Assembly: GCA_963751585.1 (NCBI GenBank)
Contig: CAVVVB010000010.1
Location: forward strand, 1,456 to 65,455
Source: an uncultured Chloroflexia bacterium
GTDB taxonomy: Bacteria > Chloroflexota > Dehalococcoidia > GIF9 > UBA5629
Length of the DNA: 64,000 nucleotides
Reading direction: 5' to 3'
Part shown: piece after piece, positions 1 to 64,000 of the stretch
How the letters are laid out: the number at the start of each line of letters is the position of its first letter
Position numbering within the stretch: position 1 is the first letter of the stretch
Made by a program: the position numbers and the translations under genes
The notes under the pieces: generated by a model
What the model saw: the letters and a program-made list of their open reading frames with translations, nothing else
What the model was told of the DNA's origin: nothing
Databases searched by the model: none

Positions 1-578
1 GCAAACCGGTCTTTGCGGAGGGTGAAGGGGGTAGCGAGAAGGAGGGCAAGCTCACTGACAAGGAGATAAAGAAGAGGATGCCAGCCTTCTATGATTTCAT
101 CAACACCCTGGACCTAGATGACTTTAATAAGCGTAAGCCCTGAGGCCGGGCTGCTAAAGGGATAATTCTTATGGAAGAGAGACTGGTCAGGAAGCTGATG
201 GCGTCAATCAAGTGCGGCTCCTGCAGGTAGCACTATGAGCCAATTAATATCGATGTTCTTGCTCACAGCGAGGACACATGCCTGCTTAGGGTGTAGAGTG
301 CGTTCTGCCATACTCAGAGCCTGGTGGTAGCCATAATCAAGGAGCAGCGGAAGCCGGAGGTTGTTACTGACCTCACTAGGGCGGAAATCTTAAGGTTCCA
401 CGCCTCCAGCCTAGTGGGGGAAGATGAAGTGCTGGATATGCACCGTTTCCTGAGGGAGTTTGACGGCGACTTTGCCGCGCTTGTCGGTGAGAGGCGGTAA
501 AGCCCGGTCGCCGTGTGATGGATGGGAGCCCTGCAGTGCGCTCTCAGGGCTTACTGAACACCACCAGAACGGCATCAT

Positions 579-1124
579 ATGGTAGAAGAAACCTGTGATC
601 TATGCGGCTACACAAGTATACTCGGGCCTGTGGAAGAATGCTCTATCGTGCCCAATGACATTGCCCGAGCCGCTGGCATGCCCAAATCACAAACTATAAG
701 AATGTGTCGCAATTGTCGTAGGGAACTTGATACATGGTTTTCAGCTAAAGTGGCGAAAATGGTTTACGATATAGGGATGCAGCGATTTAGGTACAGGACT
801 CATACCGAAATGGTTAAGGAATACCAATCGGAATTCAATGCGTTTGTAGACTATAGGAAGAGACGAGGGGGTAGCCAATGGCGGGAAGAGGCTATCCAGT
901 TAAAGAGTGACAAACTAGCCACGTCCCCGACCGCAACTAAGAAAGAAGTCCCGCCTCCAGACCCTTTCCTCGACGCCGCCAGGCAACTGGCACGGGAGCA
1001 CAAGCACATATCCACTTCTTTCTTGCAGCGGCGACTCCGCATCGGGTATCCCAAGGCAGCACGTATTATGGAACAGCTTGAGGAGCAAAGCGCTAAAGAG
1101 GGAGGGGCAAGAAGTGGAATTTGA
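579..1124 (+). CDS. Small protein with N-terminal Cys-rich zinc-ribbon (CxxC...CxxC) and C-terminal FtsK gamma-like winged-helix domain
   Basis: The C-terminus ISTSFLQRRLRIGYPKAARIMEQLEEQ matches the FtsK gamma (KOPS-binding) domain signature. The N-terminus carries CDLCG...CRNCRR. No ATPase domain is present. Confidence 0.55.
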   Translation: MVEETCDLCGYTSILGPVEECSIVPNDIARAAGMPKSQTIRMCRNCRRELDTWFSAKVAKMVYDIGMQRFRYRTHTEMVKEYQSEFNAFVDYRKRRGGSQWREEAIQLKSDKLATSPTATKKEVPPPDPFLDAARQLAREHKHISTSFLQRRLRIGYPKAARIMEQLEEQSAKEGGARSGI

Positions 1125-1519
1125 GGTTGGACGGGGACGCAATGGCACGTCTCGGGAAGTCGACCAGGGAAGAAGGAAAGAGGTATCCAATATCTATAAC
1201 ATAGGGCTTATACTCTATACCAACCATTCCTAACTCCTACCTGTGTTGTTCTTTCCCTAAGTATAACCCCCCTTTCGGTAAGATTGGAATACCGGACACC
1301 AGGCGGTCCTTCCTTACCTGTGTTTCCAAGTTGAAGACTCGTAGCCTGATAAGTAACCTGCGGCGTTGGCTTAGCTTGGGCCTGGACAAGGCTAGACGTG
1401 GAACTATGAAAACCCAGATACGCATAATCACAGTCCAGACTTCAGAGTGAGGCCAGCGTTTAGTGTCTTGGCAATTGAGCTTATCCATTTAAAACAGCAA
1501 CTCGACAGGAGGCGGGTGA

Positions 1520-1930
1520 GTGGCTAACCAGTTGAAACACATTCAGGCACATTTGAAGAGTGAGCGCAAGCGCCTAACTGAGGAGCTAAAGTTAAAGGTA
1601 ATTCCGAGTGCTGCTGAAAGGCATGAGGGCAGCCCCTTTGGCAAGAGGGAAGAAACGGCTACGGAGTGCTCTGAATTAGAGAAGCGGCTTGCCTTGCTGC
1701 AGCGTACCAGAGAACAGCTTGCTGAGGTGGAATGTGCTCTGGAGAAATTGGGAAAGGGGACGTACGGCCTGTGTGATTCCTGTGGCAAGCCTATCCCCCT
1801 TGCTCGGTTAGAAGCCATGCCCCAAGCAAACCTTTGTTTGGACTGTAAGGCTCGTCATGCTAAAAACGGTAAAGATAAGTCTCACGGGCAAGGAGAAGTG
1901 GGCCATCGAGAAGTTCAAGGAGATAAATGA
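1520..1930 (+). CDS. DksA/TraR family C4-type zinc finger protein
   Basis: Coiled-coil N-terminus followed by CDSCGKPIPLARLEAMPQANLCLDC, a four-Cys DksA/TraR finger. The true C-terminus may be earlier than the ORF stop. Confidence 0.6.
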   Translation: MANQLKHIQAHLKSERKRLTEELKLKVIPSAAERHEGSPFGKREETATECSELEKRLALLQRTREQLAEVECALEKLGKGTYGLCDSCGKPIPLARLEAMPQANLCLDCKARHAKNGKDKSHGQGEVGHREVQGDK

Positions 1931-2284
1931 GGCATTCAGTGTCCTCGGCAATCCGGCGAAAGAAGGCAGTACGACCAGTTCGGAACGTTGGGGAATGCCA
2001 GTGGCATTTTCGTTAGCCATTACACCAGAGCCGGTTTTGAGGTCTTGATGAAAGATTTCGGTGGTGCTGGGCTGGGGTTCGACTTTCTTGATGACATATT
2101 CGGCGACTTTTTCAAAGGCGATGGCACTATTGGGCTCAGTATTAAGCGTAAGGCCTCTACTAACAGTAAGAAATGGAGAGTTAGTACCTTCTGGCCAAGT
2201 CCGAACCCGTTCTCAAGGCACAGACCGATTATTGGATTTTGTGAAGCATGCTACAGAAATTCAAGATTTGGCCATTTTGCATAG
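1857..2284 (+). pseudogene. dnaJ remnant: J-domain tail and Gly/Phe-rich region fragments in shifted frames
   Basis: KFKEINEAFSVLGNP and FGGAGLGFDFLDDIFGDFF resemble DnaJ J-domain and G/F-rich segments. They are split across two frames, with no Zn-finger or C-terminal domains. Confidence 0.45.
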
Positions 2285-4755: not shown

Positions 4756-5833
4756 TTAGGCGCCGTTATTCACAATGGTTTTCAGAAACACTAGGATACG
4801 CTCTGTAGTCATTTGCCAGGTTGGATGAGATTCAAAACGGCGATGGGCATTAAGGCTCATTAACAGTAACCGATCGCGGTCCCGATACAGGTCATTCAGA
4901 TATCCTGCTAAGGATCCTGTGTCACCTACTTGTATTAATAACCCATCCCTGTCATGTGTTATTATTTCGGCGGCTGCCCCAGCTGTGGAAGCGATAGCAG
5001 GCAAACCAAATCCCATTCCTTCTAGGTAAACGATGCCAAAGCCTTCATAAGAAGATGGCATGACCAAGACATGGCTTTTCTTCAGCCAAGTTACAAGCTC
5101 GGTATCAGGTATGGATCCCAGAAACAAGGACTCTATCGGCGAGCCCGTTTTCTTTCACCCAGCGACGGATAGTGCTTACATAGGGCTTATCCATAAATAG
5201 ATCACCAGCTACAGTCAGGGTGCATATATCCCGTGGGAGCTGCGCTATTGCCGCTAGTAACGTGTGTATCTCTTTACGGCGAATGACGTTGCCGACAAAT
5301 AATATGCGTAGTGGTCCGGGGTCTTTTGCTCGGGTTGCGATTTCCTCCTCTGTAATGCACGCGGAAAATCTATTCCCGCCTGGATAAGCTACGATAGATG
5401 GACATTTTGCCCCTACAATCCTTTCCACTGAACAGCGCGTAGTCTGGCTGTTGAATATAAAACCATCAATAGTCATCAAGTATCGACGCTCGATTTCACC
5501 ATAGAGCCGTTTTTGCCAAGCCGAGCATCGCTCACTGCTGCGTAAATGGTGAACAATAGAAATAATCGGGTAAGAGACCCTAGTGCGTAAATTTTGATTA
5601 AGGAGAAAGAATGCTGGGTGAGTTGCTTCATCTTGAATAAGAATGTCGAGGGGCAATTGCCTCAAGTGTTTGGCGAGCGAAAATATGTGGCGATAGTAGT
5701 TAGAGTACGGCTGGGAAATAATGTCTACCTTATGCCCCTTATCGCGCAGATACTCGACTAGCATACGGTTATAAAGATAACCGCCAGTAAGCGTCTCCAG
5801 ACCGCCGAAAATCGCCATACCAACGCGCAACAA
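4756..5833 (-). CDS. GT4 (group 1) glycosyltransferase, interrupted by one frameshift near 5105-5127
   Basis: The N-terminal ORF (5833->5105) starts MAIFGGLETLTGGY. The C-terminal ORF (5127->4756) carries the EGFGIVYLEGMGFGLPAIAS GT4 motif. The two ORFs overlap in different frames. Confidence 0.7.
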
Positions 5834-10010: not shown

Positions 10011-11017
10011 GCCATGCCTCCTTGCCGTTCTGCGGACGGCTCTCGTTGTCCGCCATGTCAGGTCGCCCTCGCCGATGCGCTGTGCCGGCATATTTGAGGA
10101 AGACGTCATCCAGAGTGCCTACTTTCAGCGAGACTGATGCCGTGCTGACACCCCGGCTCTTCAGTTTTTCGATAATCTCCGGGTATTTTCTTTTCTCCAT
10201 CATCAACCACCAGGTCGCAGGCGCTGTCCTGGGACTGGGGCAGGAGCTGGTAGCCCAAGCTCTTGCAGCACCTGGTGGCAATCGTGATTGTCCGAGGTGA
10301 TACTGATGATATCGCCGCCCAGCTCTGCTCTTGAGCTTGTCCGGCGGGCCGATGACGGCGATTTTGCCCCCGTTCATAATGGCGATGCGGTCGCAGAGGT
10401 GATCGGCCTCGTTCATGTCGTGGGTGGTGAGTCAGGATCGTGGCGTCAAACTCGTCCCGCAGCTGTTTGATATAGTCCCACACCATCCGTTTGGCTACCG
10501 GGTCAAGACCGATGCTCGGCTCATCGAGAAAAAGCACCCGGGGGCGGTTGACCAGCACCTGGCCTATCTCCAGACGCCGCATCATGCCCCCGGAATAGTT
10601 CCGTGCCAGCTCGTTGGCCTTTTCGGAAAGCTCCATGAACCTGATAACTTCCCGGATGCGCTCCTTGCGCGCCGACCTGGGGACGTGGAAGAGCTTGGCA
10701 TAGAAAAGCAGGTTCTCGTAGCCGGTGAGGTCGCCATCCACCGAGACATCCTGCGGCACGTAGCCGGATACCTCACGCGCCTGCTGCGGTTTCTTCAGGA
10801 CATCGATGCCGGCGACCTTTGCCTTACCGTCTGTCATCGGGATGAGAGTTAGCAGGCAGCGGATGGTGGTCGTCTTGCCGGCACCGTTGGGACCGAGAAG
10901 ACCGAATATCTCGCCTTTATCCACCTGGAAAGATACAGCATCTACCGCAGTGAACTGACCGAACCGCTTGGTCAGACTTTCAACTTCAATCATGTTCATC
11001 TTTGTCTTCTCCTTCAT
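10011..11017 (-). pseudogene. ABC transporter ATP-binding protein (ABC-2 partner), disrupted by at least two frameshifts
   Basis: Walker [10 protein letters not shown], signature YSGGMMRRL and Walker B LFLDEPSIGLD lie in the ORF 11017->10106. The remainder (DATILTTHDMNEADHLCDRIAIMNGGKIAVIG ... TLDDVFLKYAG) continues in other frames (ORF 10416->9763). Confidence 0.7.
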
Positions 11018-11452
11018 GGGCCTCGATAGCTTTCACCAATGAGGTGAGTCCCTGGGACAGGTTGGTAAGCTCATCAACACTCAAATCCGCAAAGGGCTTT
11101 GGACATATAACTTCTTTTCCGTTCCCTAAGATTCGCCACAAGTTCTTCCCCTTTTTCCGTGGTTCGAAGTAACAGCATACGGCGGTCCTGGACATTTTCG
11201 ATGCGGGTCACTGAGTCTTGCTCTACCAGCCGGTCCACGATACCCGTTACATTGGCCGGCGTAACCCCGAGCGCCGCTGCCAGCTTGCCCAGAGTTGGTG
11301 CTCCCTTGATTGCTGATGAAAAACAGGCTTTTAAGCTGGGCAATGGTAATAGGTGGTAGGCTCATCCAGGCATCAAGCGTCGTCTCCCGGCGGTATCTGT
11401 CCACCTTACGCTGAAGCTCGATAATTTCCTTTACCAATGTCGTTTTATCCAT
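10986..11452 (-). CDS. MarR family transcriptional regulator, split into three frames (two apparent frameshifts)
   Basis: LAAALGVTPANVTGIVDRLVEQDSVTRIENVQDRRMLLLRTTEKGEELV is a MarR winged helix. N-terminal, middle and C-terminal parts lie on ORFs 11452->11126, 11343->11074 and 11195->10986. Confidence 0.6.
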
Positions 11453-13912: not shown

Positions 13913-13998
13913 ATAGGGCCACTTGAACCGTACACTTTGGACGGGTGGAACAAGCTCCTGATAGGTAGTAGACTGACTAACAGTGAAAGGAGCGATCT

Positions 13999-14403
13999 GT
14001 GTCCCAGGAAAACAAAGATAAAGCTGATGCTGCCGAAGCCAGAACCCAGCAAACCAGGGGCTTTATGCAGCAGGTTAGAGTAGCGTCCAGGCGGAAATAT
14101 ACTCCTGAGGAGAAAGTCCGTATCGTGCTGGAGGGGTTCCGTCGGGAAGTAACAGTCAATGAACTCTGTCGCCGGGAAGGCATCAAGCCAGGAGCCTACT
14201 ACGCCTGGACCAAGGACTTTATGGAGGCTGGGAAGGAGCGGCTAACACGGGATAGCGTCAGGGATGCTACGCGCCAGGAGATCGATGAGCTAAAACGGGA
14301 TAATGACGATCTCAAGCAGTTGGTGGCTGACCTTTCGCTGGATGTACATCGTCTCAAAAAAACGGCTATTCCTCCACTGGGCCAGAACGGCGACGGCGCA
14401 TGA
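13999..14403 (+). CDS. IS3-family transposase OrfA (HTH)
   Basis: Transposase_8-like HTH plus leucine-zipper region. Its stop overlaps the OrfB start (ATGA). Confidence 0.85.
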   Translation: MSQENKDKADAAEARTQQTRGFMQQVRVASRRKYTPEEKVRIVLEGFRREVTVNELCRREGIKPGAYYAWTKDFMEAGKERLTRDSVRDATRQEIDELKRDNDDLKQLVADLSLDVHRLKKTAIPPLGQNGDGA

Positions 14404-15359
14404 GTGCCGGGGACAAAGCTATTATCCTGGCCCAGGTAGAAAACCAGTCCAAGAGCAAACGGCAGGCGCTTATGGCACTGGGGATACCGAAAAGCAGCTA
14501 CTATCGGTGGCGCCAGGGGCGACCCGATTCGAGAAACCGGAGAAGAACGTGGAACCGGATTACTCCCGAAGAAGAAGACAAGATCCTGTCGGTAGCCCGG
14601 GAATCTCCTGATCTCAGCAGCCGGCAACTCTCAGCCTGGATCACCGATAATGAAGGCTTTGCCGTATCCGAGTCGACGGTGTACCGCATTCTAAGAAGGG
14701 AAGGGCTAGTGAAACGCCAGGCGACGCAGCTCACGGCCGCTAAGGAATACCACACTAAGACCACGCGGCCTCATCAGATGTGGGCTACCGACGCTTCCTA
14801 CTTCCGGGTGGTCAGCTGGGGCTACTATTACCTGGTGACCGTGATGGACGACTATTCCCGTTTCATCCTGGCCTGGAAACTACAGAAAGACATGTCGGCT
14901 AACTCCCTGATTGAGGTAGTTCAGGGAGCGGTGGATGCTACCGGCATGACCGATGTGCCTGTCGAGGATCGTACCAAACTCCTCTCGGATAACGGCGCTG
15001 GCTACGTCTCCAGGGCCTTCCATGATTACCTGCGTCTGGTGGGCATCGGGCATATCCTGGCGGCGCCCTTCCATCCCCAGACTAACGGCAAAGTGGAGCG
15101 CTATCAGCAGTCTCTAAAGCGAGAGGTGAACCAGCTACCCTATGAGATTCCCTCCCAGCTGGAACGGGCAATTGCTGCCTTCGTCGACTACTACAACTAC
15201 CGCCGTTATCACAAGGCTCTCGGCAACGTGACGCCGGCTGATGTCCTATATGGCAGGAGAGAGGGGATCCTAAAGCGCAGAAAGGAGGTGCAAATATCAA
15301 CAGTTAACCGTCGCAGAGACTACAACCAGGGCCTCAGGGAGCTTGTTAATGCCACCTGA
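14400..15359 (+). CDS. IS3-family transposase OrfB (rve integrase core, DDE)
   Basis: HQMWATDASYF...VMDDYSRFILAW...LSDNGAGYVS...HPQTNGKVERY carries the DD(35)E catalytic triad of the rve superfamily. Confidence 0.9.
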   Translation: MSAGDKAIILAQVENQSKSKRQALMALGIPKSSYYRWRQGRPDSRNRRRTWNRITPEEEDKILSVARESPDLSSRQLSAWITDNEGFAVSESTVYRILRREGLVKRQATQLTAAKEYHTKTTRPHQMWATDASYFRVVSWGYYYLVTVMDDYSRFILAWKLQKDMSANSLIEVVQGAVDATGMTDVPVEDRTKLLSDNGAGYVSRAFHDYLRLVGIGHILAAPFHPQTNGKVERYQQSLKREVNQLPYEIPSQLERAIAAFVDYYNYRRYHKALGNVTPADVLYGRREGILKRRKEVQISTVNRRRDYNQGLRELVNAT

Positions 15360-18685: not shown

Positions 18686-21299
18686 TCATTTACCTACAAT
18701 AAAAGATTTGATGCCTGGTCCGGCTGCCGGGTGATACGGCCTCTTGAATGCTTCAGGGTACTTTCTTCTTAATTCGTCCAGGTTAGCCCCCTCTACTTCA
18801 GCCAGGAAGCCACACGTAGCCATGCCTGCGGCATTTTTAGAAGTCACTTTATGCGGAACAATGGTGTTAATCGCGCCGCCTCGGTCGAGTTCTCCGGGAA
18901 CTATCGGGTCATATCTTGCCCCATGGTCTATCGATATTACCCCGGGCATTATTCTCTCCGTCACAAAGGCACCGCCGAGGACTGCCTCCTCTTTCGTTAT
19001 ATATTTTAACCACATCTCCATCTTCTATACCTCTCTTAGACGCATCCGCCGGATTGATCCAGACGGTGCGATACAGGTATCCGTCCGGGCCTTTGACTTT
19101 GCAGGTCTTGATTTCCCTAAACCAGGTTATATCATCATGGTTGGCATGGACTCCCCACCTGGGGTGATTGGAAACGACCAGTAGAGGATACTTCTTCGCC
19201 CTTGGGTGCAGCAGGCTTTCCTGGTGTGATTCGCCGTAGGGTATCCACTTGGGATAGGGTGGCCTCTCTTCATCATCAGGGAAGTGCTCGGCAAGCTTCT
19301 GTGAGTAGAACTCCAGCTTGCCAGTTGGGGTCGGCAGAGGATTTTTCTCGGGGTCATCGTGGAAGGCTCTCAAGCCGGGAGGGCTCTTCCTTCCATTCTG
19401 GGTCGGTTGGGAAGACGAAGTACCGGTTTTCCTTCCATTTCTTCATAGCTGATAAAACCCTTTACACCCGAAGTCTCAAAACCAATTTTTATCCATTCCT
19501 CAACGGTCTTACCCCTGCGTATTTCTCGAGCAGACCCAGCCTCTCAGCTATCATGCAGGCTATCTCATAGTCGCTCCTGGACTCCCCCAGGGGTTCGATG
19601 CATTTTCTTTCATCTATAAGAGTGTTGAATTGTCCACTGCCACCGTCGGCCGCTATATCATCTTCCTCAAATTTGGTATTGACGGGCAAGATAATATCGG
19701 CAAACAGACAATCATTTTCCATCCAAGGGTGCTGAGCCAACATGAATTCTATCTTCGGGCTTCTCACCGCCTCCACCAGCCTGTTGCCACCATTCCAGCA
19801 GGTTATCCAGCAGGGCGAATCGGTCCATATCATATGGATTTCAGAGCAACCCTCTGCAGGATACGTGTATTTCGTGAACTGGTTTTCACGTGGCGCCGCT
19901 AATAAAGTGGTACCGTACCAGCTGAGAGGTGGATTGAGAATGGCGTCAGCAATGAGAGTCTTGGGAAGAATTTGTTTTGGTAAGTTCTGAAAATTAAATC
20001 CATGATGCGCAGCCCCTACATCTGGAAATACCTTGGATCTAGGCAGAGCCATCTGATTGGGGTCGTTAAAAATAGCCCACTCAATCAGTTTGAGCTGGTT
20101 AGCTCCCGGTTTGCCCAATCCCTGCATCCCCAGCAGTATGATCTTCCATCCTGGCGGGTTCGGTTGAATATTGCCCCCTGATGTAGCCACCACCATTACC
20201 ATGTGCTATTGATGTTGCCTTGGATGCCCATTCTCTGGCCAGCGCTTTAATGACTCTTGACGGCACGCCGCATAGCTCCGCAGCCCATTTCGGCGTTTTA
20301 GGAATGCCATCCTCTTTGCCAAGTACATAGTCCCGGACTTTGTCAAAGCCAACCGTATGCGTAGCAACATACTCTTTATCATAGGTCCCTTCGGTAATCC
20401 AGACATAAGCTATAGCAAACTGTAAGGCAGCATCGGTATTAGGCAGTATCGGTATCCATTTATCAGCGTGAATTGCGGCCGAGTAATTCAAGTCTGGACA
20501 GATAAATATGGATTTTATTCCCAGCTCCGTGAACCAGTACATCAACCGGCTGGCTATCTGTCCGGACCATCCCCAACCTGTGGTTTCCGCGTCACATCCC
20601 CAGTACAGATAAGCTCGGTATTTTCGGCAATATCAGGGATCAAGATTACATTGGCGCCCTTGACCCACCGGTTCCTGCCCCCAGACATGTTTAGCGCCCC
20701 AGTACCAACCTTCCCAGCTATCCGGATTTCTGCATTGTTGGGTATATCCTCCTAAAAGTCTGAGAAGGTCTCTTTGAGCCCCATGGGGACCGTGCACACC
20801 TTTGGTCTCCCCATGTCCATCCGACTGGCAAAGTATCGCATATGGCCCGTATTTATTCTATTACCCTTTTTATCTCGCTCGCTATTATGTCTAGAGCTTC
20901 ATCCCAGGAGATTCGGACAAATCCACTCTTACCGCGATTCTCTACGTGTCTGTCGCCATTGGGGTCAAAATCGACTCTCTTCAGTGGATACAGGATTCTA
21001 TTTGAGGAGTAAACGCGCTTTTTATAGGCTAATGCGAGGGGGTCTATCAATGACTTCATACATGGTTCAAAGCTCTTGCCACGCGCCTCTATCTTCCAGG
21101 GCTTGAATTCTTCGGGCTTATACTTCCAATCATAATGCAGCGGCCTGATCCTGACTATTTTACCGTCCTTAACATCGACAACTATGGGCTTTCCTTCCAT
21201 GGCGTGAGCGCCAATAAAACTAAGCCCCTTTATGAATGTATTCTCTTCTCCGGATGACTTTCTAATGTTCTCTTTGTCGGCCATTTTACCTTTCCTCAT
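18686..21299 (-). pseudogene. Pyrogallol hydroxytransferase (TH) family molybdopterin oxidoreductase large subunit, heavily fragmented (at least 5 frameshifts and an in-frame stop)
   Basis: Collinear with the paralog at 28522-31135: VDVKDGKIVRIRPLHYD, NPDSWEGWYWG, ICPDLNYSAAIHADKW and a C-terminal molybdopterin-binding domain. The pieces are spread over ORFs 21299->20853, 20545->20099, 20202->19489, 19373->18909 and 19021->18686, with frame changes in between. Confidence 0.75.
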
Positions 21300-22263: not shown

Positions 22264-23569
22264 TTACTTGGATGAACCCGCGATAAATTGCTGCCAGTAA
22301 GAGGCCGCCTCGTCTAGGGTGATGGTGTGGAGAAAGACCGGCTGCCCACCGGAAATCTTCTTGGTGGCGTAGCCGACAATCGAGTCAACCGTCCGGTTAT
22401 TGCCCAGGTCCGGCCGGGCAATCATTACGGAGAGACCGAGCGGGCTCTCGAATTTCAGACCATTATCAATCACCGCGGCGACCTTGTCCGTATCCAGGCT
22501 ACCGGCCTGCTGCAGGGCGGTCATCAGACAGCTCCACTGGGCGATACCCTGAATCTCCGGGCCTTCCCACTTGCCGTATTGGGCTAACCAGGCAGCCTTG
22601 AAGTCCTTGGCCTGCTGAGTTAGCGCCGGGTCAAATTCGACAGGCCAGGCACCAGCCATCATCCCCTCCAGCGCCTCGGTGGGAATGAGCTGCGACAGGG
22701 TTCCCGCCGGCGAGGTGCTGCTGCAGAAGAACTGCCCCCGGTAGCCAGCCTGCCAGGCGGCCTTGATGGCCATGGCATCGGAGATGGGGCCCCCGCCTTT
22801 CGGCCTCGAAGACGTCCGGGTTCAGGGTTTTTACCTTGGTACCTATGGCACTCAGGTCGGTAGCGTTGGCCGGGTAGTATTCGGTGTCGGACTGCCGCCC
22901 GAAGGCTTGAATAGTTGCGGCTTCATGAGGGCCAATCTGGTGACCCAGGGCGTTATCCGGGCAGGCGATGACGAAGGTCTTTTTATCCGGGAAGTTCTTG
23001 ATAAACCATCCAATGAGCACCGGCCCCTGGCTGTTAATGAAGTAGGCCTCGAAAGTGTAATGGTTATCCTGGCTTAGCCCGGCCGAGGTCATGGTCGGGA
23101 TAAACAAATCCACCTTGTTAGATTCGGCTGCGGGAATCAAAGGGTCAGTAATCATGTCGTCACTGATGATGAATTTCACGTTATCCTGGTAAATCAGTTT
23201 GTTCTCGGCGGCGATGGCCGTCGTCTGGTCACCGTTGGAATCGTAGACGATAAAATCGATATTGTACTTATCCCCTCCGATAGATATACCGCCGCTTTTG
23301 TTTTCCATATCCTGCATGACCTGCAGCCCGTGCACCATGTCAAGCCCCATGGGCCATCCTAAAAAGGCGACAACACCTATTTTTAGTGTTTTTACGGCCG
23401 GTGTTGTCGGCGCTGCCGGTGTTGTCGGCGCTGCCGGTGCGGTAGTCTGTACCGCCGGAGTCGTGGTGGTGGTCATGGCCGGCGCATGGCAAGCAGATGC
23501 TAGCAGCGTGCCGATAAGCATGATGGCCACAATCAGTCCACCTAACATCGATAGTCTCCCCTTTTTCAT
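22264..23569 (-). CDS. Liv-type (HAAT family, PBP type I) ABC substrate-binding lipoprotein, one apparent frameshift near 22631-22773
   Basis: Signal peptide with lipobox LLASAC, a Thr/Pro/Ala linker (encoded by 21-bp tandem repeats around 23395-23445), then KTLKIGVVAFLGWP and a LivK-like fold. The C-terminal third lies on ORF 22773->22264. Confidence 0.7.
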
Positions 23570-28521: not shown

Positions 28522-31135
28522 CTACATACCTCCTTCAACCCAGGCATTAAAGTGAAGTCCGGAAGCTGGGTCATACTCCTTTTCGAATGCCTCAGGGTAT
28601 TGTCTTTTCCACTCTTCCATCTGGGCCATGGTGACCTTTTCAACCTCAACTAAAAATCCACTGGTAACCTGCCCTCCGCAGTTTTTAGAGACTAGACCGG
28701 CTGGAGATATCAGATTATTGGCGCCGCCCCGGTCAAGCTCCCCCGGGATTATCCAGTCACATCTGGCCCCGTGGTCCTGCGAGACCGCTCCGGGCATAAT
28801 TCTCTCCGTGACATAGGCACCGCCGAGGACGGCCCCCCTCTCGTTGTAGATCTTAACGATATCGCCGCTCTTGATGCCTCTCTTTTCCGCATCTTTCGGG
28901 TTAATCCAGATAGGCTCGTACATGTAGCCATCCCAACCCTTAACCTTGCATGTGGGGATTTCCCTTGTCCATGATATATCATCGCACTGGGCATGCATTC
29001 TCCACCTCGGATGGTTAGAGACAATGAGCAAAGGGTACTTCCTGGCTCTTTCTCCGGAAGGTCTTTCGTCATGGGTCTCACCTTTTTCAATCCAGTGCGG
29101 CAGCGGGGGTCTCTCCTTATCATCAGGGAAATATTTGGCCAGTCTCTCCGAATAGAACTCCAGCTTACCGGAGGGTGTGGGCAGAGGGTTGTTCTCGGGG
29201 TCTTTATAGAACTTGAGCATGCCGGCTGGGTTTTTATTCCCAATCCGGGGAGGTTGGGTAGACGTAATATCCCTTTTCGTTAAAGTCTTCCCAGCTGATC
29301 AATTCCGGCAACCTCATCTCCTCAAAGCAATATTTAATCCATTCTTCTACGGTCTTGCCCTGCGTAACCTCATCATACTTGCCTAGCTTTTTGGCTATCT
29401 CCAGGACTATTTCGTAATCACTCTTGGACTCGCCGATGGGCTTGATGGCCTGCTTCTGGAGCGTTATGCTAGAAATATCTATGCCAGCGATATGGTTTGG
29501 CACAATATCGTCTACCTCAAACGTGGTATTCGCCGGCAGGATGATATCCGCGAGCAGACAATCGTTCTCCAGCCACGGGTGCTGGGCGACAATACATTCT
29601 ATCTTGGGGCTTCTGAAGGCTTCTATCGTTTTATTGCCGGCATTCCAGCAGGTAGTCCGGCAGGGGGCATCGCTCCATATCATGTGTATTTCCGTGCCGC
29701 CTTCTTCTTTGGGTAGGGGATAGGTATATTTTACGAACTGGTCTTCAACTCCCGCCGCAACAGCGCCGCTACCATAAAAAGTGAGGGGTGGGTTAAGAAT
29801 GGCCTCCTGGACGAGGGTCTTAGGAATGAATTGTTTTGATGACCTCGTGTGAGCAGAGGCGTGAGGCCTGCGTAGGCGGTCACCTGGCTTGGTTGACGAG
29901 AATGCACTGAGTAAGGCACGGGCGGACCTTGGCGCGGTATCCTTAATTTCGGACATTATTATGGCCTGGTGGACTCCCGGTTTTCCCAGTCCTTGCATAC
30001 CCAGCAAGATACATTCCAATCTAGCGGGTGAATGCGAATACGTTCCCCGGATCATCGAACCGCCGATGATATGGGCTATCGACGTTGCTCTGGCGGCAAA
30101 TTCTCTAGCCAGCGCCTTGATTGTCCATTCCGGAACACCACACTTCGGCGAAGCCCACTCGGGTGTCTTGGGAATACCGTCTTCCCTGCCCAGAACGTAG
30201 TTCTCAAATTTATCGTAGCCGACAGTGTGCGTCGCCACATAATCCTTATCGTAGGTGCCTTCGGTCACCCAAGTATAAGCTATAGCGAGTTGCAGCGCTG
30301 CATCCGTGTTGGGTAGTACCGGGACCCATTTGTCGGCATGGATAGCTGCTCCATAGTTCAAATCGGGGCAAATATATATCTGCTTTATCCCCACTTCGGA
30401 CCAGAAATAGCATAATCGGGTGGCAGATTGCCCGGCAAGCCCCCAAGGTGTTGTTTCTGGATCGCATGACCAGAACAGGACCTGCTCGGAGTTCTCGGTT
30501 ATGTCCTTGATCACATTATCCATTGGCTTCATCATACCGACCCATCCCGTCCCCCACACATGCATTGACCCCCAATACCACCCCTCCCAACTATCGGGAT
30601 TTCTCTGCTGCTGCGTGAAACCACCCAGCGTGTCATGAAGCAGAATTTGACAGCCATGAGGAGCATGGATAATCTTGTCCTCCCCATGTCCATCCGCCTG
30701 CGCCAGAACCGCATACGGTCCATATTTTTCATGCACCCTCTTCAGTTCACTGGCAACTATCCCGGCAGCCTCGTCCCACGAGATTCTCTGATACTTGCTC
30801 TTCCCCCTGTTCTCCGGGTGTCTCTCGCCGTTAGGGTCCCAGTCAACTCTCTTTAAGGGGTACTTAATCCGGTTGGGAGAATAGACTCGCTTTTTGTAGG
30901 CTAGTGAGAAAGGCCCCGGAAGCGATTTCATGACGGGCTCAAAAGTTTTACCATTCCTCTGAAGTTTCCATGGGTTTATTTCCTCCCTGGTATATTTCGA
31001 GTCATAGTGTAACGGTCTAATTCTGATTATTTTTCCATCTTTAATATCAACCGCTGACGGAACGCCGCCTGCAGTGTAACCAGCCAGGCCAAGCGCTCTA
31101 AATACTGTTTTTTCTTTACCTTTTTCGTCTGGCAT
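28522..31135 (-). CDS. Pyrogallol hydroxytransferase (TH) family molybdopterin oxidoreductase large subunit; one frameshift in an A-rich run (AATAAAAACCC) near 29220-29234
   Basis: VDIKDGKIIRIRPLHYD, IKYPLKRVDWDPNGERHPENRG and NPDSWEGWYWGSMHVWGTGW correspond to hallmark blocks of Pelobacter acidigallici transhydroxylase alpha subunit (VKDGKIIRMTPMDFDD, NPDSWEGWHWGGMHMWGFSW). Combined length about 865 aa against about 875. No N-terminal Fe-S Cys motif, as in the TH alpha subunit. Confidence 0.8.
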
Positions 31136-52592: not shown

Positions 52593-53940
52593 ATGCAGAT
52601 TGAGAAGGTAGTAGAGTTATCGGAGCCGGCTCCTGAATTGAAGGAACCCGGTCCGGTAGCAAACCTATTTGCTACTCTTGTTGCCACTGCTTTCTACATT
52701 GGGATTCGGATTTCTTGCAGGTTAGAGATAATCGGGTTAAATAACTACACTGGGTCGCCTTCTACCCTTGTGGTAAGCAATCACAAAAGAGACCTGGACA
52801 TGCTGGCAATTGGTCCTGCCCTCCACTTTGGGGATAGATTCCCGCGTCCCTTGGTAAGACCATATTTCGCTGCCCACGACGATGAATTTGCACCAAGCTT
52901 TCTAGCTACTTACTTTACCCTGCCGCGGTGGCTCAGCCGGATAATATTATATAGACTGGATATTAGCCCCGTCATGTATGCTTTTAGGGCCCATCCTATG
53001 CGGCAGGCACACGCCGCCACTACGAATCAGGCCCTTAGAGAGGTGTTGCAACTGGAGGGCAATGTAGAGTTGGGAACAGTGCTCCAGGAAAGCTGGCTTC
53101 AAAGGTGCGCCGATTCCTTAGAAATACACGATCAACATGTTAAAGTCCATGACAATAAGGGACCTCATGAACTGGCGCTACCTGAAAGTCCTGCGACAGA
53201 AGGCCGACCCTTCTATGCTCCAAGGAAGCTTGTGTCGGCGAATGCGTCTTTTCCAAGGTAGGGCAATTCGAAAGCAACTAGAGTTTTTCGCCGAGCTATT
53301 GAGTCGGGGTAAAACCTTGTTCCTGGCTCCTGAAGGCGACCTCTCCCCTGATGGCAGGCTATGCCCCATCCGCGGCAGCCTTTACCGCCTGGTAAATATG
53401 TCTAGGAGAAAGGTAAAAATACTGCCAATGAATATCACCTACGACTTTATGACTACTGGCCGGATGAAGGCCTTTCTGAATATCGGGCGAGAAATACCCG
53501 AGACCAAAGGACTGTCCAAAGCCGAGTTGGAGCACCTGGTAAAGGACTCCCTCCTCAAGCTAGCGGTGGTAACAATGAGTCAGATAGGCAGCCACTCCCT
53601 GTATCACGAGGCTACCCAGGGGAATGATACTCTTATAGAAGAAAGCTGGCATGGTCAATTGGCAACCCTGGTGCAGAAAGCAGAAAAGGCTGGACTCAGG
53701 GTGGACAGGGCCTTACTTGAGGAACGGAGCTTGTACCAGAACTTCAAAGACTTCGTGAGGTACTGCCTCCGAAAGGGGCTGATAACCACAGCATCACCAG
53801 GAAGGCTACAAATCAACAGGGAAAGAATTCTAGACACCTCCTCCCCCGGATATTCCCAAAACCCAGTCTATTACTGTCACAATGAATTCAGCACTCTGCT
53901 TGGCTCTGAGTGCTGGCCCTTCTTGACCGCTCAAGAGTAG
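52593..53940 (+). CDS. Lysophospholipid (1-acyl-glycerol-3-phosphate) acyltransferase, PlsC-like; one apparent frameshift in the 53137-53261 overlap
   Basis: Block I VVSNHKRDLD (NHxxxxD) and block III FLAPEGDLS (xxEGxR-like) lie in the two overlapping ORFs. Confidence 0.7.
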
Positions 53941-54122: not shown

Positions 54123-54980
54123 TTATTTTGCTTCCCTCAGGATGGTGATTAGAGTTCCTGGTCCGCCGTGGACACCTAGCGCCGGCCCCAGTCTTACTAT
54201 TCGAGGCACTATGGTGGGAAAGAGTGAACTTGCATAGTCCGCCAATGTCTGAGCATCGTCAGGGGTGGTGCTGTGAACTATAGCCAAGTCCTCGATATGT
54301 GATACCGACCTCATAAACTCGTGGATTCGGTCTATCCCCTTTCCTCGGCTGCGTACTAGTCCAGCTGGACGAATCTCGCCGTCACGCAGAGTAAGTAATA
54401 GCTTCACATGAAGTACTGATTCTATTGCAGATATCGCAGAGGCAGCCTTTCCGAGACGCCCACCTTTGACTACGTACCTTAAAGTATCTAGAAGCGCCAA
54501 AACACGTAGCTGGCTAATAGTCTCATGAACTTTGTTTACTACCTGGCATAGACTGTATCCTGCTTCGGCAGCTTTAGCTGCTGCTATAGCAACAAGACCC
54601 TGCCACATTGTCACACCCTTAGAATCGATAACTTCAATGTGACATCCTTTCTTTTCGGCAGTCTCCTTACCCAGTAGCGCAGCATTGTAGACAGCACTGT
54701 GCTTGCTGGTGATGTGAATGGAAACAATCTCTCCAGTTTCTCGAGCCACTTCGTCATACGCCTTGGCGAAATCTCCCGGTGATGGTGCTGCCGTAGAAGG
54801 GTGAACTGGGCTGGTCATTAGTTTACGATAGAATTCGTCGCTATCTATATCGATTCCGTCGCGATAAACTTCGTCACCAAAAAGAAGATATACTGGCACT
54901 ACTCTAATGCCCAACTTCTTGGCTGCCTCTTGAGTAATGTCCGAGCCGCTGTCGGTAACAATCTTAACTGTCGTAGGTTA
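54123..54980 (-). CDS. DegV family (fatty-acid-binding, FakB-like) protein; the N-terminal 22 codons are in frame but no canonical start codon precedes them
   Basis: The frame upstream of the annotated Met reads TVKIVTDSGSDITQEAAKKLGIRVVPVY, homologous to MVKIVTDSVSDLPP of the neighbour. ACA sits at the position of the neighbour ATG. Confidence 0.7.
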
Positions 54981-55290: not shown

Positions 55291-55336
55291 ATGGCCAGGG
55301 CAGGAGATAGTAATCATGGCGCGCCGCTTGAAGTTC

Positions 55337-57930: not shown

Positions 57931-59155
57931 CTATACGGCTACTGGTTCTTTTGCCTTGCGCTTCCGCTTCGGCTTCTCGGCTGGCTTCGGCTCGGCTTCC
58001 ACTTCGGCGATTGCCTCGGCTTCGGCTACCGCTTCGGCTACCTCGGTGTCCTTCGGCTTGGCTTCCTCGGCTGGCGCTGGCTCGGCTTTCGGCTTCTCGG
58101 CGTTGGTCAGCATCGGCATGGTAACGAGCAGGTATCCGTCAACCTGAAAGAGGACTGGCGATTTACCATCGGTGAGCTTCAAGTCCACCATACCGCTACA
58201 GGCTTTTAAGGCATCGGCAAGATACTTGCCGTCAAGTCCTCACCTTGTTGACCTCGCCCTCAATATCGGCTGGCATGACCGCCCGCCCCTTATCATCGGG
58301 GCTGGACAGCATCACCATACCGTTATCAAGGGTGAGGTCTATCGGGTAGGACTTGCTATCGGCGAGCACCTTGAGGGAGCTTATCGCCTTGCCAGCCTCA
58401 ACGGTGTCAAAGTGGACAACGGTTTTTGCCTCGTTCGGAATGAGCTTCTCATAATCGGGGAAAGTGCCATCGGCACTTACGAAGCTATACCGAATTGCCT
58501 CGGTATCAATAATCAGCTTCATTCCGTCAAGGCTCTCACCGCTTGCCTCAAAGCTCAGGTTGACCCGCCTTGCTTTACGCAGGGCGTTGGCGATACCCGC
58601 CAGGTCGTCACGGTTTATCAGGGCTTGCCCCTCACCGTCAAAGTCTATGCTCTGGACTGCCAGCCTGAAACCATCGGCACTCACCAGCTTTAGCTTCCCC
58701 TCACCAGCCTTGAACAGCACACACTGTAAAACAGGTCTGTTGTCCTCGGTAGCGGTAAAGGGTAGCGTTCTGTTAAGTGCCTCGGCAAGCTCCACATTCC
58801 CGATATTAGGCTTGACGGTGTTGTTAGGGCTTACCCTGACCTCGGCTAGGGTCATGGGGGTTTTATCCCCCACCCATGCCATGTCCTCAAGGTAACTGGT
58901 ATTGCTACCGCAAATCACCTTAAGGCGTTTCCCGATGCCATGCGACTCGCTATCAGCACCATTGGCAGGGACAACCTTGACCACGTTTGACCCCGCAATC
59001 GCCTTAAGGTAACCGAGTAAGCCTTTCCGCCCAATGGTGAAGTCCAGCAGCATCAGCCTTTCCGCTAATGCTCTGGACAGGGCGTTTACCAGCGTAGCCT
59101 TATGAGCTACAAAGCCGTTACCTGAACGCTTGCCCACGATATTAAGTTTTTCCAC
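57931..59155 (-). CDS. DNA polymerase III beta sliding-clamp (DnaN) homolog with one apparent frameshift (near 58191-58232) and a roughly 60-aa Lys/Ala/Glu/Pro-rich C-terminal tail
   Basis: Domain II VLQCVLFKAGEGKLKLVSADGFRLAV (cf. E. coli LNGMLFETEGEELRTVATDGHRLAV). The hallmark FPDYEKLIP (E. coli FPDYRRVLP). C-terminal YLLVTMPM (E. coli YVVMPMRL) on the second ORF. The tail is encoded by GCTTCGGCT-type repeats at 57950-58090. Confidence 0.7.
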
Positions 59156-59354
59156 TTAACCCCCTTTTGGCTATCTGGCTAGTGGGCAAATCTGCCAGCT
59201 TCACCTAGTAGTCAGCTTCCGTCAAGCTGCGAGACGCTAGCCTTAACGGTGCTGCCACTATATAAGTCGTCAAAAGGGGCTTAAAATGTCTACATCTGAA
59301 ACAGCTTTTTTTGCTCTCGTCTTCCGAAATCGCCACAGGTATTGTCTATCGCTC

Positions 59355-59852
59355 TTAGTTAGCGCTATCCCCGCTTTCAGCTTGTAGGCTATGGCCACCA
59401 GGCCGTTTGGGATAGCCTATTTCCCAAGTGCTATCGCTTACCCAAGCGTCAAGGTCAATCGCCTTATCATCGGCTATCAGCTCCCCCAGTTCGGTTAGCT
59501 CCCCATCTTCACCAATGATAGGCTTTGATAGGTATTCCAGCTTGATAGCCTTTGGGCAATCGCCGTATAGCCAGTCCTCTTTGCACTTTTGCCGTTGCGC
59601 CTTGCTACAGCTATGGCAATCTAAACCATTATTAGCCTTGTAATAGGCTCTCCAGTAGTCGGCTTGTGCTCGGCTGGCTATCCGATACATAGCAGCTTCC
59701 GTGAAGGGCTTATGACCGTTATTCCGCTCGGCTACGGCAAGGGTGAGTATTATATCGTGGAGTAAGTCCTCTGTGTCCTCTGCCTTTGCCTTGTGGGCAA
59801 AGCGGGAAGCTACCTTATAATAGGTAAGCCATTCGCTCTGGTAACTGGTCAT
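59355..59852 (-). CDS. Hypothetical Cys-rich protein, possibly regulatory (weak sigma region-2-like N-terminus)
   Basis: AEDTEDLLHDIILTLAV faintly resembles sigma-70 region 2. CHSC...C...C cluster. Not confidently assigned. Confidence 0.3.
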   Translation of the reverse strand: MTSYQSEWLTYYKVASRFAHKAKAEDTEDLLHDIILTLAVAERNNGHKPFTEAAMYRIASRAQADYWRAYYKANNGLDCHSCSKAQRQKCKEDWLYGDCPKAIKLEYLSKPIIGEDGELTELGELIADDKAIDLDAWVSDSTWEIGYPKRPGGHSLQAESGDSAN

Positions 59853-60598
59853 AGCCGTTACCGTTGCCGTCAGCTTGCCTTTGCTTTCGCCTTTGCCTAG
59901 ACTTGATATGGCGGGGCTTTGTCCGTTGAGTTTGGCAGCTTGCAGGCTTACCGCACCACTGGCAAACGCCCTGCCTTTCCTTTAGTGTCCAGACCTTACC
60001 GCATCGGCTACAATGCCCTTGCGGTGCTGGTGATGATGTTACTGCCTTGTCATCGCTTGACCCCCTTTCCGAGGGCAAGCGTTCAGGTCAGGTTTAACCG
60101 ATATTCAATTATTAAGGTACGCTAGATATTCCCCATTCAGTATTGAACAAAAGGAAGGATTGTGCATTAACAGAATGAACCTATATTTACATGAAAATCC
60201 CATGGAATAAGAAAAACGGAATTTCAGCAGTTGAAGATTTAGGCTTGCCCTAATTGACCCGTTAGCTCTACTTCCTAGCTACCGTAGAGGGCGAACTGGG
60301 GGTTTGACCAAGCTGCATCAGAGGCCGCCCTGCCAGCATCAGTCAGACGGAAATACCTTCGGGGTGGCCCCGGCGGATAATGGTCTTGAAAAGCTGATGC
60401 CTCTTCCTCGCCGGTAGGTTCTACCCAGCCTAATCTCTGAATGGTTGAAAAGTAGACCACAAAACTGTGGAAGCGACACCCCTTAATTTTACCGAAGCTG
60501 TAATGGCCTAGACACTTAACAAAAAGTGAGCTATGGCTGTGGCACGGAAATTGACTTTTGCAGCTTACTATGTTAACTTAATTGTAATAGGAGTAGAT

Positions 60599-60835: not shown

Positions 60836-60838
60836 TCC

Positions 60839-61954: not shown

Positions 61955-61964
61955 GCTAACGGCC
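61889..61964 (-). tRNA. tRNA-Lys (anticodon UUU), 76 nt with encoded CCA
   Basis: The reverse complement GGGCCGTTAGCTCAGCTGGTAGAGCAGTGGACTTTTAATCCATTGGTCGCAGGTTCGAATCCTGCACGGCCTACCA folds as a cloverleaf. Anticodon loop CTTTTAA and T-loop GGTTCGAATCC. Near-identical to E. coli tRNA-Lys. Confidence 0.9.
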
Positions 61965-62215
61965 CGCTTTAGAAAAAAGGGATTCCAGCTTTTAATTCTA
62001 GCAAATCAGCCTCTCTTCGCGCAACCCTGTAATCTCGTGCCTTCATTTTTACCTCTCCCTTTCCCCACCCCGAACGGGGCGTCTAAGAGGGGTGTAAACC
62101 CCTCTTCAAATTATTCCCCCTTCCCTCGGGAATTATGAAGGGAAGGGGGTCAGGGGGATAGGTCACTATCATCCCCTTTGTCTATCCTCCGCCTTTGCGC
62201 TATAATGCAGTCACG

Positions 62216-63312
62216 ATGACTGATAACGACGCACGCTTTATGCGGCAGGCTTTAAAGCTGGCCCGCCGCGGCCTGGGGAAGACCTCCCCAAACCCCATGG
62301 TAGGCGCGGTAATCGTTAAGGAGGGGCGGGTTATCGCGCAGGGGTATCATCAGGATTGGCGCCGATCACGCCGAGGTGGACGCTTTGAAACACGCTGAAG
62401 AGGACGTGGCCGGGGCGACGCTGTACGTCACTCTGGAGCCCTGCCGCCATTATGGCAAGACGCCGCCCTGCACCGACGCTATCATCAAGAGCAAAATCGG
62501 CCGGGTCGTTATCGGCATGCTCGACCCCGACCCCAAAAGCGGGGGGAAAGCGTTAAGCTTGGAGGAAAACGGATAAACCACCGTCGGCGTGCTGGAAGAG
62601 GAGTGCCGCGCCCTGAACGAGAAGTACATCAAGCACCGCACCACGGGCATGCCTTTCGTGACGCTCAAGTGGGCGCAGACGCTGGACGGGAGAATCGCCA
62701 CGGCGTCGGGAAGTTCCTCACGCTGGATAAGCTCCCCGAGTCTTTAAAGCTGGCGCACCGGCTCCGCGCCACGCACGACGCTATTCTGGTGGGCGTTCAA
62801 ACGGTAATCAAGGACGACCCGGAGCTGACCACGCGCCTGGTCAGGGGCAGGAACCCGCGGCGCGTTATCCTGGACTCTCGCTTGAGGATTCCCCTCGACG
62901 CTAAAGTGCTGGAGGACCAGGAGAAAGCGCAAAACTTTAGTGGTCGCGACCCCCTCCGCCCCATAAACAAAAGCTCGCCGCCCTGCAAAAGATGGGCATA
63001 GAAGTTTTGACGTTCCCGCCGGATAAACACGGCCGGGTGGACCTTAAAAAGCTGCTGAAAACTTTAGGCGAACGCGAGATTTCCTCCCTTCTGGTGGAGG
63101 GCGGCGGCGAGGTAATTACTTCTTTCCTGCGCCTGGGCCTGGCGAATAAGCTGGTGGCCATTATCGCCCCTAAAATCCTGGGCACCGGCACGGACGCCGT
63201 CAGCGACCTTAATATTACGGACTTAGCTAACGCTTACCAGCTGACTTTTACTAAGGTCTATAGAAGCGGGGAAGATATAGTGGTGGAGGGGAGGTGTAAG
63301 GAGACGCAATGA
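62216..63312 (+). CDS. ribD: Riboflavin biosynthesis protein RibD (deaminase plus reductase), interrupted by one in-frame TAA (62574-62576) and three frameshifts
   Basis: Deaminase [22 protein letters not shown] / [12 protein letters not shown] / [18 protein letters not shown]. Reductase [27 protein letters not shown] / [21 protein letters not shown] / [15 protein letters not shown]. The pieces lie in alternating frames. One shift sits in a C-run (TCCCCGAG), another at CATCAGGATT, and a third lies between the 62603-63001 and 62992-63312 ORFs. Confidence 0.8.
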
Positions 63313-64000
63313 ATAAAGACAATTTACCTAAAACAATTTACCACTATACTACACAGGAAGGTTTAATAGGAATTCTAAAAGAAAGAGCTTTATGGGCAAC
63401 AAAAATTCATTACATGAATGATGCGAGCGAATTAGTTGAACCAATAAATATAGCAAGTGCTTTTCTCAACAAGCTTGAAGTCAGAGAAGACATTAAAAAA
63501 GATAAAATATTAAAAAATACCATTATTAGTATGCAAAATGAGCTTGAAATAAGTGGTGAAACAAACTATTGTGTTGCTTCATTCTGTAAGAAGAAAATTT
63601 ATTGAGTCAATGGCGTGCTTATGGAGTTCCTGGTTCTGTTTACTCTATCGGATTTAATGTAAAAAATCTAATAAAATCCATAACTCCGCATTCTTTTGAA
63701 TTACATAAATGTGAGTATTATGACTCTCAAGATTATCGTGTACATATTGAAAAGTTTATTGAAGACTTTCTATTTAAGGTTAAAGATGATAAAAAATTAT
63801 TACCCGAGTTTATATTTGTATTTACGAGTCTTGCTGCAAGAATGAAACATGATTGTTTCAAAGAGGAAGATGAGTATAGAGTCGTATCTATAAAGCCTTT
63901 AACTTATAATAATGAAAGGTTTAATTTCAGGCCTGGGAAATCTATTTTTATTCCATATTATTCAATACCACTAGACCTTCAATCAACTATTGTTAATTTA
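63309..64000 (+). CDS. DUF2971-like protein in AT-rich DNA, one frameshift near 63600, continues past the window end
   Basis: TIYHYTTQEGLIGILKERALWATKIHYMNDASE and, in the next frame, SQWRAYGVPGSVYSIGFNV match the DUF2971 N-terminal motifs. Local GC is clearly lower than the rest of the window. Confidence 0.5.

Follow-up and report, generated by a model that had tools for sequence, protein, structure and literature searches.

The 64,000-nt window analyzed here, taken from a 66-kb contig of an uncultured Dehalococcoidales, raises the question of why so many of its genes are interrupted: whether the genome itself is decaying, whether the cell restores the reading frames, or whether the breaks are confined to the assembled sequence. 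A first-pass annotation had listed at least 12 interrupted genes and had favored platform indel errors. All 12 of the genes that it named are anomalous, 11 of them carrying frame changes and one, a DegV paralog, being without a canonical start. Using frameshift-aware protein-to-DNA alignment against intact references, as that annotation had recommended, we located 30 small indels (23 insertions and 7 deletions) in 12 genes, which is about a fifth of the roughly 55 to 60 genes in the window. The indel counts exceed the minima given before, and one of the broken genes, a hypothetical phage-region gene (59300..59925, minus strand) with single-base insertions at 59841 and 59402 and 83% identity to the intact 210-aa protein P0206, was absent from the first list. 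The large neighboring genes were correctly described as intact, namely an aldehyde:ferredoxin oxidoreductase (AOR) of 624 aa, the OYE proteins of 688 and 667 aa, and rpoD of 514 aa.

The lesions are of one kind. All 30 events in the 12 genes are 1 to 2 nt in size, with no larger deletion among them, and the complementary halves of single Pfam domains fall in different frames. Once the frames are corrected, all 12 products are full length, and no in-frame nonsense codon was found in the about 7,000 codons of these genes. Since the lesions consist of small indels only, the products are conserved over their full length, and near-identical assemblies lack at least two of the lesions, consensus errors are the best reading. 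We therefore propose, with a probability of roughly 0.88, that the interruptions are artifacts of a locally poor metagenome-assembly consensus. The source assembly was probably made from long reads, and, judging from their sequences, the broken genes would be functional in the organism.

Several genes carry a single inserted base. The GT4 glycosyltransferase gene (4768..5830, minus strand) has its insertion at about 5119 (GTTTCT[G]GGATCC); its Pfam halves lie in two frames, and it shows 51% identity to the 362-aa homolog P0208 at full length. The gene for a branched-chain-type solute-binding protein (SBP; 22285..23563, minus strand) is broken by one +1 event at about 22795-22807, adjoining a G5 run; Pfam places Peripla_BP_6 positions 16-193 and 206-323 in different frames, and paralogs in the window served as the alignment reference. 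The interrupted AOR gene (31348..33232, minus strand) has an extra base at 32599 (GTAGCC[G]ACCCC) that separates AFOR_N from AFOR_C, the intact paralog at 42828-44702 serving as the reference. TH copy B (28525..31135, minus strand) differs by exactly one indel from the intact L082 gene as well as from P0039 (85% identity, 871 aa), namely an insertion at 29236 (TGGGAA[T]AAAAAC) in which a T interrupts what should be an A7 run. The gene for a phage-type DnaN-like sliding clamp (57934..59155, minus strand; 94% identity to the intact 412-aa P0192) gains one base at 58237 (GTGAGG[A]CTTGAC), which moves the last ~100 aa into another frame; in the sister contig L170 the gene is hit by a separate +1 event, seven nucleotides upstream of that in the window. 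The single lesions in the GT4, SBP, AOR, TH copy B, and DnaN-like genes could individually be real strain-specific mutations, a possibility that weighs against an artifact.

Independent assemblies provided a direct comparison for 2 of the 30 sites, and both lesions are absent from the near-identical sequence. Logan contigs from run ERR10755942 match the window at 99.9% identity with 0 gaps over 42397-44860 and at 99.4% identity over 51111-55335; in these 6.7 kb there are two indel differences, both of them extra bases in the window. The gene for a PlsC-like acyltransferase (52593..53940, plus strand) carries an extra G at 53130 (CAC[G]ATC) that is missing from the Logan contig L083, which encodes an intact 448-aa PlsC-like protein; deleting this G from the window regains the full open reading frame. 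The DUF2971 gene (63309..64000, plus strand) has a single-base deletion at 63591 (AAGAA-GAAAA) where the sister contig L001 has AAGAAGGAAAA; there the gene is intact (277 aa), its remaining residues are 100% identical, and the flanks are about 99.5% identical. At both comparable loci, the frameshifted alleles lie inside islands of allelic divergence with near-identical flanks (PlsC-like, 52876-53769; ribD, 62191-63190). The DegV paralog (54126..54977, minus strand), whose start had been counted as lost and placed among the errors, has ACG in place of the expected ATG, and the same ACG occurs in the independent contig L083; this start is real sequence and stands outside the error set, being the only anomaly of the window that a clean assembly shares. 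A scan of GTDB with rpoD returned closest genomes that are only 64% identical and show no synteny around rpoD, and the JGI rpoD relatives L087-L089 show no synteny downstream of rpoD. Exact look-ups with several proteins of the window gave no match.

These comparisons also bear on the alternative that survives best, a mixture in which the clustered events are mostly errors and a few isolated ones (GT4, SBP, AOR, TH copy B, and DnaN-like) are recent, real strain-specific frameshifts. Because their density is about that found in the Logan comparison, isolated events are statistically inseparable from rare real mutations, and the islands of allelic divergence and the ACG start attest to real population variation. 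However, the isolated events carry the same +1 insertion signature as the clustered ones, and the only two isolated ones amenable to a check (53130 and 63591) are both absent from the near-identical comparator. We consider such a mixture possible but rather unlikely.

Genuine, widespread pseudogenization in a Dehalococcoidales lineage, either as genome decay or as the loss of dispensable paralogs and ribD, makes predictions that the most heavily damaged genes allowed us to assess. The lesions are indeed concentrated in genes that may be dispensable (a second TH paralog, an efflux operon, and phage genes), and TH copy A, a pyrogallol-hydroxytransferase-like molybdoenzyme (18698..21281, minus strand), had been regarded as genuinely decayed. 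It carries eight one-base events, comprising insertions at 20855, 20644, 20143, 19441, 19392, and 18986 and deletions at 20610 and 19518. Yet stops and large deletions are both absent once the frames are corrected, and the protein aligns from end to end with the intact 863-aa P0357 at 85% identity. Across 40 intact homologs, 197 columns are invariant, and TH copy A keeps the family residue in all 197 of them; with 19 to 58 unique amino acid changes against 43 to 77 in intact sisters, its branch is shorter than theirs. The assumption of decay is thereby refuted. An initial count of nine events, obtained with a 60%-identical reference, was revised to eight with the 85%-identical P0357, and a count of 243 of 271 invariant columns relative to the TH copy B subfamily was misleading, as TH copy A belongs to another subfamily.

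The efflux operon gives a similar picture. The gene for an ABC-2-type transporter ATPase (10011..10999, minus strand) has five single-base insertions (10432, 10326, 10259, 10183, and 10083), and its corrected product is 88% identical to a JGI ortholog in L094 over all 328 aa, with no stop; none of nine JGI orthologs carries a frameshift. In a relative-rate test, 7 to 17 amino acid changes are unique to the window lineage, compared with 10 to 20 in intact sisters, so that the branch leading to the window is normal or short and shows no rate acceleration. The adjacent gene for a MarR-family regulator (11016..11452, minus strand; +1 events at 11293 and 11091) yields a protein that scores 50.8 bits against Pfam MarR only after correction, the raw fragment giving no Pfam match, which bears out the earlier advice to base protein-level calls on frame-corrected translations.

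The case of ribD (62240..63309, plus strand) is less simple. It had been described as carrying a stop and three shifts; we found six shifts, at 62351 (-2), 62535 (-1), 62576 (-2), 62739 (-1), 62930 (+1), and 62961 (+1), and the apparent stop is out of frame and secondary to them. The corrected protein is 80.5% identical to the intact 358-aa RibD of JGI contig L084, with no stop. The gene is also broken in L001, a sister contig that is 10% divergent here, and two of the six window events (62930 and 62961) are common to both. Their presence in L001 requires either a systematic error tied to the sequence context or a lesion that the two really have in common; as it stands, this sharing counts against an artifact and, together with the real change of the DegV start codon, speaks for pseudogenization. 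Nevertheless, dN/dS between the window and L001 is 0.25 at a dS of 0.29, all of which would postdate the shared lesions, and this value equals that obtained against the intact JGI gene (0.25 to 0.29). There is thus no relaxed selection in the three genes tested (ABC ATPase, TH copy A, and ribD).

The same signature extends beyond the window. In sister contigs of ENA assembly ERZ25039512 (named "contig_N"), ribonucleotide reductase (RNR) carries 14 frameshifts, NrdR 2, ribD 7, and a Mur-ligase-like gene 8, with an insertion-to-deletion ratio of 24:7, against 23:7 in the window, and these genes are intact in three JGI contigs. That the essential RNR and NrdR are affected while the JGI relatives are intact is hard to reconcile with pseudogenization, as are the complete lack of nonsense codons among 30 lesions, the lack of excess amino acid change in genes with five to eight of them, and the near-identical sequences in which the PlsC-like and DUF2971 lesions are missing. 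We regard this alternative as improbable.

How, then, might consensus errors have arisen? As had been noted, the events are not uniformly distributed. They form clusters in the ABC ATPase (5), MarR (2), TH copy A (8), and ribD (6) genes, and the longest event-free stretch spans 20.5 kb (32.6-53.1 kb; P = 0.0003 under uniform placement). The variance-to-mean ratio in 2-kb bins is 3.9, and density peaks at up to 5.6 events per kb, compared with none in those 20.5 kb. Noisy stretches of 0.4 to 2.6 kb, with 3 to 6 small indels per kb, are set in a contig that is mostly clean. In such stretches, the consensus may have been drawn from a small number of reads or left unpolished; another possibility is that reads from co-occurring, locally divergent strains were collapsed together.

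The sequence context of the indels is less telling. Of the 30 events, 7 have a run of at least four identical bases no more than 2 nt away, where 3.7 would be expected (P = 0.07), and 2 have a run of at least five nearby, against an expected 1.1; the majority of events are single-base insertions outside runs. The platform-indel interpretation offered previously thus holds as far as sequence or assembly error is concerned, but the homopolymer pattern on which it chiefly relied is too weakly associated to be the main argument. The textbook nanopore signature is homopolymer deletion; the weak homopolymer link and the insertion bias both differ from it, which is a further point against an artifact. 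No convincing motif is shared by the 30 sites, the best of the 136 4-mers tested being CCCC and GATC (P of about 0.005 to 0.007). The idea that both alleles were emitted, each +1 event representing the other allele of a neighboring SNP, was unsupported, the counts matching random expectation: among the contexts read by eye, about 10 of 16 inserted bases fit synonymous third-position alternatives, and transitions and transversions stand at about 6:10, both as expected by chance.

Two further possibilities would make the indels real and the proteins functional nonetheless. A localized, insertion-biased frameshift hypermutation that keeps striking particular genes across strains (ribD, DnaN-like, and RNR in the sister) appears very improbable and, as the proteins would have to stay under purifying selection, would require some frame-restoring mechanism. 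Programmed recoding, by which ribosomal frameshifting or transcriptional slippage would restore the frames in vivo, is effectively refuted for everything but an IS3-family element, for although that element contains an A7 slippery site of the classical kind and TH copies A and B each have one +1 event within one codon of a homologous position, no motif is common to the 30 sites, only the IS3 element has a slippery heptamer, the orthologs and homologs are all single intact open reading frames, and up to eight shifts per gene are incompatible with any known recoding. In the IS3 orfA/orfB pair itself (13987..15356, plus strand), which lies outside the error set, HTH_Tnp_1 and rve occupy overlapping frames according to Pfam, and the A7 run at 14353-14361, read directly from the sequence, marks the frame change as a predicted natural programmed -1 frameshift.

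With consensus error as the preferred explanation, the significance of these results is that of a data-quality warning only. Fragment open reading frames of this contig have been deposited as proteins in public collections, where they will lower completeness estimates, raise pseudogene counts, and hide domains. Metabolic inference for this lineage concerning riboflavin synthesis, transhydroxylase-like enzymes, AOR, and transporters should use frame-corrected translations, and neither ribD nor TH copy A should be reported as lost. Clustering this sharp is also a reminder that near-perfect and poor consensus can coexist in one contig.

The window can be set beside three known situations. It resembles the decaying genomes of bacteria with genuine pseudogenes in that about 20% of its genes are interrupted, but it differs from them in having no nonsense codons, larger deletions, or elevated protein divergence, and in lesions that are not common to near-identical relatives. 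In collapsed assemblies, nearby allelic variants bring indel errors and apparent frameshifts (PMC8445201), and in both comparable cases here the frameshifts likewise lie inside islands of allelic divergence; that system is a diploid eukaryote, whereas ours would involve co-occurring bacterial strains, and the by-eye comparison gave no support for a likeness of the inserted bases to the alternative allele. Finally, indel errors in long-read metagenome-assembled genomes make genes look like pseudogenes, an effect that is stronger at low coverage (PMC8103633), and tools for correcting such indels include Kastor (PMC12007338). Compared with these nanopore or PacBio CLR cases, the events in the window are insertion biased, only weakly tied to homopolymers, and gathered in sharp islands within a clean contig. 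In both, however, small indels split conserved genes to an extent that varies with local consensus quality, and full-length proteins and their domain matches are regained by frame-aware correction.

Our alignments confirmed the interrupted genes that the first-pass annotation had noticed, and we consider, with a probability of about 0.88, that these interruptions are sequence or assembly artefacts and not a biological feature. An intact reference was gathered for every suspect gene and aligned with our own protein-to-DNA aligner, which allows frameshifts. JGI metagenome loci served as references for the ABC ATPase and MarR genes, full-length homologues for the two pyrogallol-hydroxytransferase-like molybdoenzyme genes (TH-A and TH-B), a 50%-cluster representative for the GT4 glycosyltransferase, window paralogues for the aldehyde:ferredoxin oxidoreductase (AOR) and solute-binding protein (SBP) genes, cluster mates for the DnaN-like, DUF2971 and 59.3-kb genes, a Logan contig for the PlsC-like gene and, for ribD, JGI contigs with intact ribD beside the same integrase. 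In total, 30 frame-shifting events were located, spread over 12 genes, or about 20% of those in the window. All eleven frameshifted genes named previously were borne out, mostly with more lesions than the minimum given, and one more was added (59300-59925, minus strand, two events). None of the 12 genes contains an in-frame stop after frame correction; the stop described in ribD results from a shift that precedes it.

The artefact interpretation, already favored in the first-pass annotation, is supported by five lines of evidence: the absence of nonsense lesions, the absence of relaxed selection, independent assemblies, sister contigs and long-read precedent. Real decay in bacterial pseudogenes produces a mix of frameshift and nonsense lesions, so thirty indels accompanied by no nonsense substitution point to errors. 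Relaxed selection was likewise not found in the many-lesion genes tested (ABC ATPase, TH-A and ribD). After correction, the ABC ATPase shares 88% identity with an intact JGI orthologue, none of nine orthologues is frameshifted, and Tajima-type counts gave 7 to 17 unique changes in the window lineage versus 10 to 20 in intact sisters. The view that TH-A is genuinely decayed is refuted: over 858 residues it matches an intact protein at 85% identity, it retains all 197 columns invariant among 40 intact homologues, and it has a shorter branch than its intact sisters. For ribD, the window and the sister contig L001 differ with a dN/dS of 0.25 at a dS of 0.29, in line with the dN/dS that each of them shows relative to the intact JGI gene. 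The ribD events A3 to A4 at 62930 and C3 to C4 at 62961 are common to the window and the 10%-divergent L001; because of this dN/dS of 0.25, context-specific systematic errors appear more likely than inherited lesions.

Run ERR10755942 provides two Logan contigs almost identical to the window, one at 99.9% identity and without a gap over 42397-44860, the other (L083) at 99.4% over 51111-55335. In L083 the extra G at 53130 is missing and the PlsC-like protein is intact at 448 aa; deleting this G restores the window ORF. Similarly, the DUF2971 gene is intact in L001 (277 aa), with residues otherwise identical to those of the window. Agreement of independent assemblies with the clean parts of the window, together with disagreement at a lesion, points to errors. 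At 55078, an intergenic C-run reads C4 in the window and C3 in L083, the extra base again being in the window; this site and 53130 are the only indel differences across 6.7 kb of near-identical comparison.

L001 and its companion L170 (contig_42366 and contig_42363, 'contig_N' names of ENA assembly ERZ25039512) are themselves frameshifted. Over L001 5373-9989 and L170 110-1318, the ribonucleotide reductase gene carries 14 frameshifts, the Mur-ligase-like gene 8, NrdR 2, ribD 7 and the DnaN-like gene several; the first four of these genes are intact in all three JGI contigs of a related lineage. Fourteen frameshifts in an essential gene at 86% protein identity cannot be real. The 24:7 ratio of insertions to deletions in L001 and L170 matches the 3:1 bias of the window, where 7 deletions were found versus 23 insertions, almost all of them one base long (P = 0.005 against 1:1).

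The homopolymer argument of the first-pass annotation is valid for a few sites only, since the overall association with runs is weak and no sequence motif is convincingly enriched around the 30 event sites. Runs of at least 4 lie within 2 nt of 7 of the 30 events (3.7 expected, P = 0.07), and runs of at least 5 lie near 2 of the 30 (1.1 expected). The TH-B event at 29236 falls inside an expected A7 run, the SBP event lies beside a G5 run, and the ribD events at 62739, 62930 and 62961 are further homopolymer-associated examples. Some insertions come back at almost the same position in independent sequences, in purine-rich contexts. Two assemblies carry independent +1 events in the DnaN-like gene that lie 7 nt apart (window 58237, L170 1026), and TH-A (19392) and TH-B (29236) each carry a +1 within one codon of a homologous W-E/K|K position; the near coincidence of the TH insertions suggests context-dependent miscalls.

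As had been stated, errors are not uniform. Event density reaches 5.6 per kb in ribD, 5.1 in the ABC ATPase gene and 3.1 in TH-A, whereas 32599 to 53130 is empty (largest-gap P = 0.0003), and the variance-to-mean ratio is 3.9 in 2-kb bins. Near-identical comparators exist for two cases, and in each of them the frameshifts lie within real allelic-divergence islands with almost identical flanks. In 52876-53769, which holds 21 of the 22 mismatches to L083, 11 mismatches are synonymous and 10 non-synonymous and are therefore mostly real polymorphism; the ribD segment 62191-63190 is about 10% divergent from L001, while its integrase and DUF2971 flanks are about 99.5 to 99.9% identical. Both islands, sharply bounded and with 2 to 10% divergence and a dN/dS of about 0.25 to 0.3, sit inside otherwise 99.9% identical sequence, a mosaic that suggests, by identity pattern, recombination between co-occurring strains. 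Collapse of divergent alleles into one is known to yield indel errors and apparent frameshifts (PMC8445201), and indels may have arisen here through such a consensus. Alternatively, the islands may be strain-specific stretches with scant read support or missed by polishing. With 3 to 6 events per kb, the islands are as densely hit as the uniformly noisy sister contig. A direct test of each insertion for the inserted base being the other allele gave nothing above random expectation.

Two features are real. In the DegV paralogue at 54126-54977 (minus strand), the conserved N-terminus TVKIVTDSGSD (window 54915-55000, minus strand) comes immediately after a TAA, with ACG in the expected ATG place. 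Its lost start had been counted among the errors, but L083, an independent contig, is identical there; the ACG is therefore genuine sequence, a non-canonical or lost start. In the IS3-family element at 13987-15356 (plus strand), an A7 run, TCAAAAAAAC (14353-14361), lies where orfA (HTH_Tnp_1) overlaps orfB (rve). It is the classical programmed -1 frameshift site, and this frame change is natural, amid artefactual ones.

Pfam scans over a greedy tiling of all six frames gave the gene map: rpoD, the GT4 glycosyltransferase, a nitroreductase and a CMAS gene; a MarR/ABC-2 efflux operon; IS110, IS3 and rve transposases; the two TH genes; three AORs, two OYE-type reductases, two LivHMGF sets and several SBPs; IclR, SnoaL and SDR genes; the PlsC-like acyltransferase and two DegV genes; a phage-like module; and ribD and the DUF2971 gene. 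The exact ORF products, gene fragments included, are deposited in NCBI/ENA on a single metagenome contig of 66,108 bp, of which the window is therefore a part. No GTDB species representative exceeds 64% identity to rpoD (2497-4041), whose best matches are all uncultured Dehalococcoidales MAGs. Two paralogous catabolic clusters (LivHMGF transporter, OYE-type reductase, SDR and AOR, together with IclR and a SnoaL-like gene) occupy 33600-51060 and adjoin the two TH genes; no frameshift at all falls in this 19-kb block. The phage-like integrative module (56400-61965) comprises a tyrosine integrase (60839-61954), the DnaN-like clamp and hypothetical genes. With its 3' end the integrase overlaps tRNA-Lys (61890-61965, minus strand). 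L001 has the integrase at 100% identity, and three JGI contigs, where it likewise adjoins ribD, have it at about 97% DNA identity. The three transposases lie at 12530-15356 and 23746-25008, and a 128-nt stretch that immediately precedes rpoD in a JGI relative (L087 1-128) is located 14 kb away in the window, at 18217-18344. This indicates IS-associated rearrangement.

Our results thus serve as a data-quality warning: frame-corrected translations should be used, and the window should not be read as showing that ribD, TH-A or the efflux operon has been lost. Indel errors that create apparent frameshifts are well known in long-read MAGs, where they are worse at low coverage (PMC8103633).
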